From positions 2,240,001 through 2,304,000 of the forward strand of contig OZ242318.1 in the NCBI GenBank assembly GCA_965208105.1: 64,000 nucleotides of DNA. The letters run 5' to 3'. Positions 3,702 to 8,498 of the stretch are shown in pieces. This DNA is from Candidatus Latescibacterota bacterium (GTDB lineage: Bacteria; Latescibacterota; UBA2968; UBA8231). Positions within the stretch are counted from its first letter, which is position 1. Every line of letters starts with the position of its first letter. Made by a program: the position numbers and the translations under genes. The notes beneath the pieces were generated by a model. It was not told the origin of the DNA. It saw nothing but the letters and a program-made list of their open reading frames with translations, and did no database searches.

Positions 3702-4601
3702 TCAATCCTCGCCAACCTCCTCGTCCGTCTCCTGCCGCGGCCGGGATACCTTCACCACCCAGATGCTGATTTCGTAGAGCAACAGGACGGGGAGCGCCAT
3801 CAGGATCTGGGACAGCGGATCGGGCGGTGTGAAGATGGCTGCCACGACGAAGATTGCGGCGATGGCATAGCGCCGGATCCGGCGCATGTAATCGGGGGTG
3901 AGCAGCCCGAGGCGGGAGAGGAAGAGGGCCACCACCGGCATCTCGAAGACCAGGCCGAATCCCACCAGCAGCCTTAATACAAAGCCGATATAGGTGTCCG
4001 CCGCCCATTGCGAGGTCATGTCCGGCGGTTCCAGGGCAAGGAAGAAGCGCAGCCCCAAGGGCAGCACGATCCAGTAGGCAACCAGGGCGCCGGCGGTGAA
4101 ACACAGGACGCTGAGGCCGATGAGCGGCAGGGCGATGCGCTTCTCGCTGCTCAGCAGGCCGGGTGCGACGAACCGCCAGACCTGGTAGAAGACCACCGGC
4201 AGGGCCAGCACGAGGCCGCCTATGAGGGCGATCTGCAGACTGATGAAAAAGTAGGTCATTGGCTTGAGCGACTGCAGCCGGCGCGAGTCGGGCAGAGCCT
4301 GATCGGGCTCCGAGATCCCTGACTCGGCCCCGGGAGACGGCGAGCCCATCCACTCCTCCAGCAGCTTCCGGACCGCATCCACGGCACCCGGAGGGCGCTC
4401 GCTCTCCAGGCTCCGGACCGCTTCCTCGTAGGGGTAGGTCAAAAGTTTCAGGAGTTGGTCGGAGAAAACGAAGCAGACCACAGCTCCCACGATGACCGCC
4501 GCCAGGGCTTTGAGGATGCACCAGCGCAGCTCCTCGAGGTGGCCCAGGAAGGGCATTTCCTTGCGATCTTTCTGCCTGGACTCGTCCAGAAGGTTCTCCA
4601 A
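3702..4601 (-). CDS. tatC: Twin-arginine translocase subunit TatC
   Basis: EMPFLGHLEELR, YQVWRFVAPGL..SEKR, GLVFEMP, AAIFTPPDP.SQ; about 6 TM segments. Confidence 0.95.
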   Translation of the reverse strand: MENLLDESRQKDRKEMPFLGHLEELRWCILKALAAVIVGAVVCFVFSDQLLKLLTYPYEEAVRSLESERPPGAVDAVRKLLEEWMGSPSPGAESGISEPDQALPDSRRLQSLKPMTYFFISLQIALIGGLVLALPVVFYQVWRFVAPGLLSSEKRIALPLIGLSVLCFTAGALVAYWIVLPLGLRFFLALEPPDMTSQWAADTYIGFVLRLLVGFGLVFEMPVVALFLSRLGLLTPDYMRRIRRYAIAAIFVVAAIFTPPDPLSQILMALPVLLLYEISIWVVKVSRPRQETDEEVGED

Positions 4602-4846
4602 TCTCTCGAAATCGATTTCCCCGGCGGCGGCGACTCGGAACCCCGTGCTTGAATCCCTGCCAGCTTCGCCCCGGGCGCATCCTACCCTCCCGCCTCGCGC
4701 ACCCGGGGGGCGCGGAAGGAGCGAGTTCCCTAGACCTTATGTATTGACGGAGATATGAAAGACCTCCTCCGACTCGGTTGTCGGGGGTTATCTTTGGGAA
4801 AACGGAGTTCACCCAAAGACCTATCCCCAGCGAGAAGGAGGAGGCC

Positions 4847-5986
4847 ATGCGTAAATCTACGAAATTCGTCGCCTTGGACATACATAAAGATTCGATCACC
4901 GTCGCCCTGGCCGGTGAAGGCCGAAAAGGGCCAGACCTGTATGGAACGATACCGTCTACGGGCGCCGCGTTGTCCAAGCTGGCGGGCCAACTGGCCCGTG
5001 GTGGGACCTCGTTGCGGTTTTGCTACGAGGCCGGACCCTGCGGCTACGGCGTCTACCGTCAGCTCACAGCCCTGGGGCACGCCTGCACGGTGGTGGCGCC
5101 CTCGCTGATCCCGCGTCGGCCGGGCGACCGCATCAAGACCGACCGCCGCGATGCTGTGTCTCTGGTGCGGCTTTTCCAACACGGCGAGTTGACCCCCGTG
5201 TGGGTGCCCGACGAAGCGCAGGAGGCGATGCGCGATCTGGAGCGCTGCCGGGAAGACTTCAAGCACGCCGAGCGCCGCGTGCGCCAGCGGCTGAACAGCT
5301 TCTTGCAGCGCCACGGCCGGATCTACTCCGGGCGCAGTCGCTGGACCCAAGCCCACTTTCGCTGGCTGGAGACCCAGCGCTTCGATCATCCGGCCCAGCA
5401 GATCGTCTTTCAGGAATACGTGGACGCGGTACAGGAAGCCCAAGGTCGGATCCAGGGGTTGGACCAGGCCCTGCAGCAGGCGCTGGAGGGATGGTCTTTG
5501 GAAGGGGAGACGCGGGCTATGAGGGCGCTGCGCGGGGTAGACACGCTCACCGCGGTTACGACCCTGGCCGAGTTGGGGGACCTCACCCGCTTTGACTCGC
5601 CGCGCCAACTGATGGCCTTCGTCGGTCTGGTCCCCAGCGAGCATTCCAGCGGCTCCCGCCAAAAGCGAGGGGCGATCACCAAGGCGGGCAACGCCCACGT
5701 GCGGCGCGTGCTGGTGGAAGCCGCCTGGTGCTATCGCTTTCCCGCCCGCAAGACGGCCGCCTTGCAACGACGCGCCGAACAGACCGCACCCCCCATACAG
5801 GCCATCGCCTGGAAGGCACAGAAACGCCTGTGTGGGCGCTATCGACGGCTGAGTGGGCGAGGGATGCCGAAAAACAAAGTCTGCACCGCGATCGCGCGGG
5901 AGCTTTTGGGTTTCATCTGGGCCATCGCCTGGGAGCAGAAACGCCCCGGCCGCCTCGTGGCCAGGAGGCCTCGGATCGCCGCCTGA
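4847..5986 (+). CDS. IS110-family DEDD recombinase/transposase
   Basis: AAGGAGGAGG RBS; RuvC-like D-E-D-D (ALDIHK, CYEAG, KTDRRDA); C-terminal GLVPSEHSSG catalytic-Ser loop; frame uninterrupted. Confidence 0.97.
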   Translation: MRKSTKFVALDIHKDSITVALAGEGRKGPDLYGTIPSTGAALSKLAGQLARGGTSLRFCYEAGPCGYGVYRQLTALGHACTVVAPSLIPRRPGDRIKTDRRDAVSLVRLFQHGELTPVWVPDEAQEAMRDLERCREDFKHAERRVRQRLNSFLQRHGRIYSGRSRWTQAHFRWLETQRFDHPAQQIVFQEYVDAVQEAQGRIQGLDQALQQALEGWSLEGETRAMRALRGVDTLTAVTTLAELGDLTRFDSPRQLMAFVGLVPSEHSSGSRQKRGAITKAGNAHVRRVLVEAAWCYRFPARKTAALQRRAEQTAPPIQAIAWKAQKRLCGRYRRLSGRGMPKNKVCTAIARELLGFIWAIAWEQKRPGRLVARRPRIAA

Positions 5987-6018
5987 TAAGCTCATCGTCT
6001 CAGAAGCCGGCATAGGAC

Positions 6019-6226
6019 CTTTGCTCATGTAAATCGAAACGGGACAGAAGGGACCGGTCAGGAGAATCCTCGAAGACACTATGAGGCGCCTATCAGGCTG
6101 ACCCTCGACTCTAGATTGAGGCCGCTCCGCGACGCACCCAGGACAGGCGGTAACCAACCCGCGAATATCAGTCGGATCAACCGTCGCTACAGCGTCCCTT
6201 CTGTTCCCGAACAAACTCATGCAAAG
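6019..6226 (+). ncRNA. Predicted bridge RNA/seekRNA of the IS1111-type element
   Basis: Enclosing stem CGGGACAGAAGGGAC (6040-6054) / GTCCCTTCTGTTCCCG (6194-6209). Internal GACACT (6075-6080), CTCTAG (6109-6114) and ATATCAG (6165-6171) match the target and donor junction sequences. Confidence 0.75.
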
Positions 6227-6281
6227 ATAACACCCGAAATGACCACCCCGGAGGGGGTTGACAACCGTCAATACATATCAG

Positions 6282-6441
6282 TGTCCCGTCGCAGAGATAG
6301 GTTGACGCAATTGGGCCGCCGAGGCGCCCGGCTCACAAGGCGCCTGAGCGAGTCGTACCAGTGGTGTACGGCGAGTGAAGGCAACGCCGTGAGCCGGGAT
6401 GGATCGGTGGAATAATGGCGACATATCTCTGCGACGGGACA
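6282..6441. mobile_element. ~160-bp palindromic MITE/REP-like element bounded by CTAG
   Basis: Terminal IR TGTCCCGTCGCAGAGATA (6282-6299) / TATCTCTGCGACGGGACA (6424-6441). Inner IRs CCCGGCTCAC (6327-6336) / GTGAGCCGGG (6389-6398) and GTCGTAC / GTACGGC. CTAG at 6442-6445, and CTAG is restored on the left when the IS is removed. Confidence 0.85.
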
Positions 6442-8040
6442 CTAGTTGCGCGCGAAAACCCCCTTCACTCTGACGGCAACCAAGCCGGCCAGGCAGACGA
6501 CCGCGCCCAGCAGCATGGCGCGGGCGAAGAGGTCGCCGTGGCGCGTGTAGAAGGTGAGACCGCCCCCGACGTCAACGTCTCCCACCCGCACGGCCGGCTC
6601 GAAAATCCCGGTGGCCTGGTAGGTTCGCCCGAAGGGATCAATGAATAGGGAAATCCCACTGGTGGCGCAACGGGCGATGGAGGTGCGGTTCTCGACGGCG
6701 CGAAGGACGGCCAGTTGCGCGTGCTGGTATGGTCCGGCGGTGCGCCCGAACCAGGAGTCGTTGGTGATGTTGATCAACAGCTGCGCCCCCGCCTGCACGC
6801 GCTGCCGCGCCAGATCGGGAAAGACGGATTCGAAACATATGAGCACGGCGAAGGTCGCTTCGGAATGGCTGAACAAGGTGTGTTCCCTGCCCCTGGCGAA
6901 CTCGGCCGGACCGAGATCGCCGGTGAGGGCGGTCCAGTCGATCCCGCGCAGCAGGGGGATGCTGTCCCGGAAGGGGGTGCGTTCGCCAAAGGGGACCAGG
7001 TGCATTTTGGCATAGACCTGCAGATCGGGGTGCCCGGGACTGGCGAAAAAGGCTGAATTATAGGGCTCGCCGCCCGATGGACCATAGTCCGAGGCCCCGG
7101 TGAGCAGGGGTATCCGCAGGTCCTTCACCAGTCGCTCCACCCTGCCCCTGCAACCGGGGCGCCAGCGCAGGTAACAGGGCAGGGCGGTCTCGGGCCAGAC
7201 GAGAAGGGCGGGATTCCGGGCAGCCGCCTGTCGCGACAAGCTCTCGAGGGTGGCAAAGCTGCGGCCGAGGCCGCCGGGCCCCCATTTCTCCTCGCGGGAC
7301 AGGTTGGGCTGGACCAGGGCGACCCGCATTTTCGGGCCCGGCAGGGACGAGGGCGGTATCGAAGCGCGGCCGTGGACCCAGGGTCCCGCTATCCACAGAA
7401 CCAGACCACCCAGCAGCGCCGTCCGCCGCCGGATCCCCATGGGAGCGGCGAGAATGAGAAATACCAGCACATTGACCAGGGCGAGCCAGAAGGAGACCCC
7501 GTAGACCCCGGTAATCGAGGCGTACTGGATCAGGGCGGGAAAGACCGCCTGGGTGTTGCCCAGAAGCAGCCAGGGGAATCCCAGCTCGCCCAGCGAGAGC
7601 AGGTACTCCTGGGCCGACCACAGGACGGGAGCCAGGAGCAGGGCGCGCCGGCCCCAGCGCTGCATCGAGCCGCCCAGCAATCCGGCGAATACGGCGATGA
7701 ACAGGCCCAGGTAGGCGGCCATGAGCACGGTGCCGCCTACTACGGCCGGTCCTCCTCCCTGGGTGTGGGCGACCCAGTAGAGACTGCACAGATTGAAGGT
7801 GAAGCCGGTAACCCATCCCCGCCGAAACCCCTCTTTGAAACCACAGCCCTGCAGGGCCGCGAACAGGGGGATCAGCGCAGTCCAGGCCCAGCCGCCGTGA
7901 TAGAGAATGGCCAGAGGATTTTCGGGATGGCAGGGAAAGGACAGGGCAAGCAGCATCCCCGACAGTATGGGGAGTATGCATCCGCGGAAATGCCGGTTGG
8001 AGCCGGTGAGGGCCAGGCTGGCTGCGGAGATCTGGAGCAT
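6442..8040 (-). CDS. lnt: Apolipoprotein N-acyltransferase
   Basis: N-terminal TM domain, GFPW, VQPN, WPET, K.HLVPFGE, ICFES, TNDSWFG...GPYQH, RAVENR. Start codon uncertain. Confidence 0.95.
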   Translation of the reverse strand: MLQISAASLALTGSNRHFRGCILPILSGMLLALSFPCHPENPLAILYHGGWAWTALIPLFAALQGCGFKEGFRRGWVTGFTFNLCSLYWVAHTQGGGPAVVGGTVLMAAYLGLFIAVFAGLLGGSMQRWGRRALLLAPVLWSAQEYLLSLGELGFPWLLLGNTQAVFPALIQYASITGVYGVSFWLALVNVLVFLILAAPMGIRRRTALLGGLVLWIAGPWVHGRASIPPSSLPGPKMRVALVQPNLSREEKWGPGGLGRSFATLESLSRQAAARNPALLVWPETALPCYLRWRPGCRGRVERLVKDLRIPLLTGASDYGPSGGEPYNSAFFASPGHPDLQVYAKMHLVPFGERTPFRDSIPLLRGIDWTALTGDLGPAEFARGREHTLFSHSEATFAVLICFESVFPDLARQRVQAGAQLLINITNDSWFGRTAGPYQHAQLAVLRAVENRTSIARCATSGISLFIDPFGRTYQATGIFEPAVRVGDVDVGGGLTFYTRHGDLFARAMLLGAVVCLAGLVAVRVKGVFARN

Positions 8041-8153
8041 CGGCTGCCGGGGTGGTGAGTTATGAGGCCGTGGAGAAGTGCGGAGACGGGCGCGGGCAGG
8101 GATGGAGCATGGCCGGCAAATATAGACCGGTGCGCGGCGGCGGGCAAGGAAGG

Positions 8154-8169
8154 TGGCACGAATTCTGCT
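8154..8169 (+). promoter_or_regulatory. Candidate sigma-54 (-24/-12) promoter upstream of radC
   Basis: TGGCACGAATTCTGCT, GG-N10-GC, one mismatch to TGGCACG-N4-TTGC; intergenic. Confidence 0.4.
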
Positions 8170-8498
8170 TCGACGGAGGTTGCCCGGTCCGTCCCGGATT
8201 TGGTGAAGGACCCGATTGCAATGGTAGCTGCAGGGCAGTGAGCGGGCTGTCCCCTTGAACCCCTTCCGCTGCCCCGGTCTTCCCCCGGGCCGGCGCAAAT
8301 GGAGGAAGGAAAATTCGCCCGGAAATTTCCTCATGGTTTCTTCCGGGTGCTATGTTGGCAGGAGAGGAGAACAGGAATGGTTCGTTTCTTACACGCATCG
8401 GCCGGAGAGGCAGGAGAATCATGCACTCGGAAGTAAGCTGGGAAGAAAAAAATTTGAACAACGGGGTCGGATGCCTGCCGCCAAGGAAAGGTTCCCCC

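Follow-up and report, generated by a model that had tools for sequence, protein, structure and literature searches.

A conserved, probably RNA-guided architecture in the 3' non-coding end of an IS1111-type insertion sequence

The window, that is, the whole 64,000-nucleotide stretch of DNA analysed here, contains an IS110-family insertion sequence of IS1111-type build at positions 4734-6281 on the forward strand (1548 bp, counting the right-hand AG). It lies between two frames on the reverse strand, 3702-4601 and 6442-8334, whose translations look like a TatC-type translocase subunit and an apolipoprotein N-acyltransferase, and the gap between these frames contains both the element and a palindromic repeat. 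The genome (4.85 Mb, one contig) carries 12 copies of the element with identical junctions. Eight copies are 1548 bp long, two are 1549 bp, one is 1550 bp and one, with an internal deletion, is 1428 bp. The full recombinase frame of 379 codons is intact in 10 of the 12, while one copy is frameshifted and one has lost 120 bp, and the insertion sequence looks active. Two tail fragments were also found in the genome. One (G000:C1:3931346-3931510) corresponds to window positions 6118-6283 at 92% identity and includes the donor loop described below and the right end, without the target loop; the other (G000:C1:4001325-4001432) corresponds to positions 6000-6108 at 85% identity and lies inverted about 150 bp past one of the copies (c02). 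Both are probably remnants of decayed element copies.

Two observations fix the bounds 4734-6281 and the shared AG (CT on the bottom strand): the 12 genomic copies have these bounds in common, and unoccupied repeat ends have the sequence CTAG-TGTCCC. Both element junctions contain AG. On the left, CTAG at 4730-4733 precedes all 12 copies, and its AG (4732-4733) is one copy of the core dinucleotide common to target and element. Subterminal inverted repeats of 13 bp are present at both ends. The left one, TATGTATTGACGG (4738-4750), begins 4 nt in from the left end and is the reverse complement of the right one, CCGTCAATACATA (6265-6277), which is followed by TC and the core AG (6280-6281). Both repeats are also found in relatives, and their length is within the range of 7-17 bp that PMC11208160 gives for the IS1111 group. 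The non-coding ends are of unequal length, 113 nt on the left (4734-4846) and 295 nt on the right (5987-6281), so that the longer one is downstream of the recombinase gene. This long downstream non-coding end, together with the subterminal repeats, points to the IS1111-type build as described in PMC11208160 and PMC11187229.

On its right side the element abuts a repeated palindromic element of 160 bp (6282-6441) with inverted ends of about 22 bp (TGTCCCGTCGCAGAGATA...), after which CTAG occurs again (6442-6445). Bordered by CTAG on both sides, the palindrome resembles a small transposon, one that is non-autonomous and has a 4-bp duplication. The insertion point is exactly between CTAG and the palindrome tip, and either end of the repeat can be occupied. 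After the element, 10 of the 12 copies run into TGTCCCGTNGCAGA (N varies between copies), the tip of the palindromic repeat; the remaining two run into TGGTCG and TGTTGT, where only 2 or 3 of the 4 right-flank bases are matched. Genome-wide there are 226 repeat ends (at most 2 mismatches), 109 of them preceded by CTAG and 10 by the ATATCAG of the element. CTAG is rare in this genome of 61.6% G+C (3298 sites). The 8-bp site CTAGTGTC occurs 87 times, and since 75 of these occurrences extend to CTAGTGTCCC, the start of the repeat's end sequence, the short site is nearly restricted to repeat tips. Repeat-tip targeting thus points to an ecological strategy by which the element lands where harm is slight.

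The recombinase gene (4847-5986, forward strand) encodes 379 amino acids plus a stop, with a DEDD/RuvC-like domain and a Tnp domain in Pfam and NCBIfam searches. PF01548 covers residues 8-155 (E = 5.7e-13) and PF02371 residues 226-296 (E = 1.8e-22), and the NCBIfam model NF033542, 'IS110 family RNA-guided transposase', scores 263 bits against a cut-off of 140. The protein is only distantly similar to the solved chains of ISCro4 (E = 1.4e-8) and IS621 (E = 2e-5). The alignment with ISCro4 places the D, E, D, D and SG columns of the two proteins opposite each other (alDihK/iDvsK, cyEag/cmEat, ktDrrDa/ktDavDa and GLvPsehsSG/GLtPrryeSG), and the aligned acidic residues and serine would correspond to D11, E60, D102, D105 and S241 of IS621. 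The GL-P----SG motif is present, and the length of 379 aa is outside the 330-350 aa quoted for the IS1111 family. No sigma-70-like promoter was found in a scan of positions 4650-6450.

Relatives were collected by scanning one genome per species, which gave 235 loci, and the best 80 of the 235 were kept. The recombinases of these 80 loci are 57-85% identical to that of the window and come from several phyla. Replicons of Azospirillum and Cupriavidus carry relatives with 56-60% identity. The element ends were parsed in 71 of 81 sequences (the 80 loci plus the window); the other 10 were dropped when the right end was absent from the available DNA or was not within 150-600 nt of the stop codon. 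The ends are conserved in the family, with AG followed by ACAT.ATG... on the left and ...CATATCAG as the terminus on the right, and the right-hand flanking DNA varies by lineage. One locus with a mis-parsed anchor (L073) was excluded from the first guide-flank count. The RNA alignment contains 45 distinct sequences from 55 stretches; omitted were six Bryobacterales sequences whose first module has an insertion, three near-duplicates and L073.

A group of Bryobacterales MAG loci (L092-L108) has a duplicated piece in the target-loop module, the left end AGAAGATGG and non-coding ends of 500-590 nt, and its donor guide ACUCUG pairs with both core bases, unlike the guides of the 45 aligned lineages. 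In several relatives (L043, L049, L065, L078, L097, L104 and others) joining of the ends places TTGACA from the right end 17 nt from CATAAT or CATCAT of the left end. TTGACA-17 nt-CATAAT, seen where the left end begins with ACATAAT, would be a putative junction promoter toward the recombinase gene. A promoter of this kind was rejected for the lineage of the window: its left end is ACCTTA, and no such -10 box forms.

In the right non-coding end, the minimum free energy (MFE) fold contains a core of 167 nt (6041-6207, forward strand), closed by a basal stem of 6041-6058 with 6189-6207. This basal stem would carry two stem-enclosed internal loops, the target loop first and the donor loop second. 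Below the target loop are two stems with 5' strands within 6061-6073, GGAG (6061-6064) pairing with 6125-6128 and CCUCGA (6068-6073) pairing with 6116-6121. In the latter stem compensatory changes were observed from UA to CG in 7 sequences and from CG to UA in 10. The target internal loop itself has 8 nt per side, 6074-6081 and 6108-6115, in the fold of 5987-6281, and is capped by an inner stem-loop (6082-6107) in which all 8 alignment pairs have changed on both sides. The outer stem of the donor loop begins with the 5' strand GCGACG (6129-6134), pairing with 6182-6187, and its closing pair varies between GC (22 sequences), AU (16) and CG (3). At the apex is a hairpin (6147-6162) of GCGG, the loop UAACCAAC and CCGC, one pair of which has changed from CG to UA in 7 sequences. 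An 8-mer in this region, CAACCGTC (6178-6185), is repeated at 6262-6269 near the right repeat; we set this match aside, as such an 8-mer is expected about 0.4 times by chance (an estimate).

RNAalifold on the 45 aligned sequences returned the same stems as the single-sequence MFE fold. Across the 45 lineages, paired cells made up 94.3%, compared with 86.8% in shuffled alignments (0 of 500 reached the observed value) and 34-46.5% after sliding the partners by 1-3 columns, and changes on both sides were found at 13 of 26 pairs, a number reached by 0 of 500 shuffles. The basal stem is too variable to align, yet despite differing sequences at least 8 bp of it formed in the own fold of 42 of the 45 lineages. 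The stems also contain G.U pairs (for example, in 12 sequences at one pair), which fit the recombinase strand only, since on the other strand they would be C.A. These patterns point to a conserved structured RNA in the 3' non-coding end. The fold energy of 5987-6281 was unremarkable (z = -1.30; 22 of 200 shuffles fold as well). An Rfam search of 4500-6600 gave no relevant family, its five matches having E values of 2-9.3 and scores far under the gathering scores.

Part of the element is contained in eight RNA-library runs. Contigs from four runs in four studies span the gene and the tail at 90-99% identity; they give neither transcript ends nor strand nor level, DNA carry-over is possible, and they were not counted in favour of a discrete RNA. 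Contigs of related elements from sponge and marine metatranscriptomes (runs X1 and X2) differ from the window at positions 6109, 6110 and 6116, which places the left-flank guide among the more variable spots between close relatives.

Four short segments of this tail had been singled out from the window alone by an earlier note, and each is where the note had put it: GACACT at 6075-6080, CTCTAG at 6109-6114, ATATCAG at 6165-6171 and again at 6275-6281, and AGGACA at 6140-6145. The bottom-strand target that it had read, GGGACA-CT-AGGG, likewise agrees with the flanks of the window, CCCTAG on the left (4728-4733) and TGTCCC on the right (6282-6287). How often such matches arise was estimated with 3000 dinucleotide-preserving shuffles of 5987-6264, the tail minus its terminal 17 nt. 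A core-spanning 7-mer complementary to the target occurred in 280 of the 3000 shuffles, one identical to the donor end in 360, and both together in 35. CTCTAG and AGGACA hold only exact runs of 4 nt, for which the chance counts were 2395 and 2790 of 3000. Because of these chance rates the window by itself is only suggestive, and it is the covariation in the family, across related loci, that is decisive.

Target guide 1, GACACUA (6075-6081), is complementary to T(-3)-AG-TGTC of the top strand and forms 7 bp with TAGTGTC in the window; viewed from the bottom strand, it is the 'left target guide' of IS621. In the alignment the right-flank positions +1 to +6 are paired in 38/44, 36/44, 37/44, 35/42, 25/42 and 18/42 lineages, and positions -3 to -1 in 33-35 of 37. 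When each distinct guide is represented by a single flank, the matches at +1 to +6 number 31, 28, 30, 30, 21 and 14 of 35 lineages. The resulting mean of 4.40 of 6 compares with 1.78 +/- 0.20 when the flanks were shuffled among the 35 lineages, and 0 of 10,000 shuffles were as high. Nine of the 35 lineages have at most 3 of 6 matches in this fixed-register count, and several of them are one-base register shifts of the fixed-offset parsing. A one-base shift of the flank is also seen in L032, the nearest relative that shares the guide of the window. Another candidate for the right flank, GGACA (6141-6145) as the complement of TGTCC, was rejected as a coincidence, as the relative L031 has the same guide and a different flank.

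Target guide 2, CUCUAG with A6115 (6109-6115), has the same sequence as the left flank plus core on the top strand, so its pairing partner is the bottom strand. Its agreement with the flank of the window covers -6, -4, -3 and the core and fails at -5; in the family it matches at -6 in 14/46, at -5 in 24/46, at -4 in 41/46, at -3 in 45/46 and at the core in 45/46. The left-flank mean was 2.92 of 4 against 1.42 +/- 0.15 after shuffling (26 lineages), and again 0 of 10,000 shuffles were as high. The earlier note had proposed guide-flank covariation in homologous elements as a check on its reading, and this covariation is thus present for both flanks. The assignment of GACACT and CTCTAG as target guides is further borne out by a blind mutual-information (MI) scan, in which 209 RNA columns were compared with 22 positions of the target and 24 of the donor. 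The six strongest signals (6111/-4, 6078/+1, 6077/+2, 6075/+4, 6076/+3 and 6110/-5) all fall within the two target guides. The base after the left-flank guide, A6115, equals the first element base in 37 of 37 lineages; this agreement is compatible with a handshake guide, but as both bases are invariant it is no test of one.

Within the genome the covariation was too weak to be informative. The guides of the 12 copies differ only at 6110 and 6111 (CTCTAG, with CCCTAG in copy c10 and CCATAG in copies c08 and c11) and track their own flanks poorly, and the CCAUAG of c08 and c11 mismatches its own flank at -4. RNA supplied in trans by other copies would blur such a guide-flank signal within one genome.

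Donor guide 2, AUAUCAG (6165-6171), is identical to the last seven bases of the right end of the element (6275-6281). The proposal that this segment represents the donor holds across the family, with the guide equal to the right end in 43 of 45 lineages (the exceptions are L061 and L076). Seven lineages have an end other than ATATCAG (listed are ATAACAG once, ATACCAG four times and ATATCAA once), and the guide follows the variant end in six of the seven. MI between 6168 and position -4 of the right end is 0.50, with an identity of 0.98. The support from these variants is moderate because they represent about three independent changes. The base after AUAUCAG agrees with the target, as in a handshake-type match, in 8 of 44 lineages, which is the chance level, and T6172, the eighth matching base in the window, was for this reason taken as chance.

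Donor guide 1, AGGACAG (6140-6146), shows partial complementarity to C-AG-ACCT, the top strand across the circle junction. Of its 7 positions 5 are paired in the window, and the other two, facing core base 1 and element base +1, are A.A mismatches. The earlier note had already seen that AGGACA matches the left donor end only in part, and the partial match turns out to be a property of the whole family. Pairing is found at -3 in 28/45 lineages, at core base 1 in 0/45 and at core base 2 in 43/45, and on the element side at +1 in 31/37, at +2 in 37/37, at +3 in 15/37 and at +4 in 28/37. Opposite the first core base the donor guide presents A.A in 43 of 45 lineages and C.A in 2 of 45; the target loop, by contrast, is paired at that base in 34 of 37. 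Covariation is uninformative for donor guide 1, since the left end hardly varies, and the MI signals there are only diffuse. Three classes of left end occur, ACAT, ACCT and AGAA (the last outside the alignment), and the guide base facing +2 is G, G and C, respectively.

The weakness of donor guide 1 is an argument for a different reading, in which the RNA guides only the choice of target, the recombinase recognises its own ends through the 13-bp repeats, and the donor loop is mainly a scaffold with AUAUCAG as the sole real pairing. Such a division of labour would accommodate the poor pairing at core base 1 and at +3, as well as the long and conserved subterminal repeats, and the nearly constant left end gives covariation no test there; moreover, a short seekRNA of 82 nt sufficed for ISEc11 in the experiments described in PMC11187229. 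However, donor guide 2 follows the variant right ends in most of the lineages that have them, and the guide base facing +2 changes with the left-end class. Imperfect pairing is also not unusual, and that of donor guide 1 has a precedent, because its IS621 counterpart, the right donor guide, pairs discontiguously according to PMC11208160. We consider guidance of the target alone rather unlikely.

The preferred reading is that the 3' non-coding end (core 6041-6207, on the recombinase strand) encodes a bridge RNA, or seekRNA, of an IS1111-type element. From the sequence comparisons above we estimate its probability at roughly 0.88. It is highly improbable that the segments instead act as DNA, be it as protein-binding sites, as alternative ends (compare the B/B' boxes of ISPpu9) or as single-strand DNA guides of the IS200/IS605 kind. 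Complementarity between guide and flank taken alone separates neither RNA from DNA nor the strand that is read, the internal GAATATCAG-T looks much like the actual right end, and the RNA-library contigs give no transcript ends. On the other hand, G.U pairs persist in the stems and would read C.A on the opposite strand, no genomic copy or fragment ends at 6171, and the relatives of this recombinase family described in PMC11208160 and PMC11187229 work with RNA. That the matches arose by chance, in a tail that merely forms a common 3' untranslated structure (a terminator or stabiliser, for example), is barely tenable: each 7-mer match alone turns up in 9-12% of the tail shuffles and the z value of the fold energy is only -1.30, but the guide-flank covariation was twice unequalled in 10,000 shuffles and the MI scan selects exactly these columns.

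For the bridge RNA, a working scheme can be drawn by analogy with studied elements. The element would excise as a circle in which the right end is joined to the left at AG. Recombinase dimers would assemble on the two loops, with the joined ends bound at the second and the target at the first, and would bring the circle and the target together. At the target loop, GACACUA would read the top strand and (C)UCUAG (6110-6114) would pair with the left flank plus core on the bottom strand. The two target pairings would overlap at the AG core and jointly read about 8-10 bp, CTAG/TGTC. At the donor loop, AGGACAG (6140-6146) would pair imperfectly with the core and left end on the top strand. Strand exchange would then take place at AG, by analogy with IS621 (PMC11208160, PMC11208158) and ISEc11 (PMC11187229). 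Transcription, processing and protein binding of the guide RNA, and the chemistry of the exchange, are likewise inferred from these systems.

A further complementarity was found between the donor loop and the recombinase leader. The leader of the window has a hairpin at 4766-4797 followed by UUAUCUUU, a terminator-like match, and a leader hairpin is conserved in relatives. The hairpin of the window contains CGGGGGTTA, which is complementary at 7 of 8 positions to AACCCGCG in the donor-loop hairpin, and the motif is located in the 3' strand of the terminator-like hairpin. Most relatives (for example, L104, L078 and L106) have, at about +32 of the element, a stem CCTCAAGC...GCTTGAGG with the loop ACGYGGGTTA. 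This loop is complementary to AACCCRCG of the apical donor-loop hairpin, and in 21 of 36 lineages 8-9 nt match exactly at this fixed position. The variable Y/R position shows the leader/donor combinations T/A in 13, C/G in 7, T/G in 13 and C/A in 0 lineages, and of 4 changes at another variable position, 3 lack compensation. Because the leader motif is complementary to the donor-loop apex, the guide RNA and the recombinase mRNA could pair. Pairing of the leader CGYGGGUUA with the apical AACCCRCG could couple guide folding to recombinase expression, and the unpaired first core base in the donor loop could bias the DNA accepted by each loop, or the direction of the reaction. We regard it as doubtful that the clade adds regulation to the bridge-RNA scheme through this asymmetry of the donor-loop core and the leader/donor-loop pairing.

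The RNA-guided recombinases gain a well-documented natural clade with this element. In about 35 lineages, which span several phyla, one scaffold is combined with different guides. They form a natural retargeting series and show where the DNA is read, namely from -5 to -1 and from +1 to +4, at times up to +6. The earlier note had called the recombinase and its RNA a reprogrammable pair, and this stands as natural retargeting among relatives and in that sense alone. For genome engineering, the clade supplies a further recombinase and RNA scaffold that could be tried. Biologically it is a confirmation and not a discovery, since the architecture, the guide order and natural retargeting were already published in 2024 and the element reveals no new mechanism.

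The closest published systems are the seekRNAs described for the IS1111-family elements ISEc11, ISPa11, ISKpn4 and ISPst6 (Siddiquee et al. 2024, PMC11187229). As in that description, the non-coding region is downstream of the recombinase gene and the inverted repeats are subterminal, two short segments match opposite target strands and overlap at the insertion point, the segment complementary to the top strand is placed 5' of the other, and related elements are naturally redirected by changes in the guide segments. The order of target loop and then donor loop, which the earlier note had taken from known bridge RNAs, also agrees with what is reported there for IS1111-type seekRNAs. Unlike the family as characterised in that paper (330-350 aa), the recombinase here has 379 aa; the RNA is deduced from sequence here, and insertion takes place at the tip of a palindromic repeat of 160 bp.

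With the IS621 bridge RNA as described in PMC11208160, the RNA proposed here would share two internal loops, target then donor, with one guide per DNA strand and the core included in all of them, as well as a bottom-strand core CT with the left guide 5' and the right guide 3', and one donor guide that pairs imperfectly. A6115 after the right target guide equals the donor base beside the core, as a handshake guide would (PMC11208158). In contrast to IS621 as presented in these papers, the RNA would be in the right end and not the left, the subterminal repeats are long, the protein similarity is distant (E = 2e-5), none of the 45 aligned lineages pairs its donor guide with core base 1, and the base after the donor guide matches the target at chance level (8/44).

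ISPpu9 of Pseudomonas putida, as described in PMC12288879, is also an IS110-family element inserted in repeated palindromes with the crossover at a shared AG. Its bridge RNA, unlike the one proposed here, lies in the transcript upstream of the recombinase gene, and its downstream RNA, Ssr9, is reported in the same paper to be dispensable for transposition. Overall, the differences between this element and the described cases are small: a recombinase of 379 aa, a conserved A in the donor loop that stays unpaired at the first core base, and a conserved leader hairpin complementary to the donor apex.
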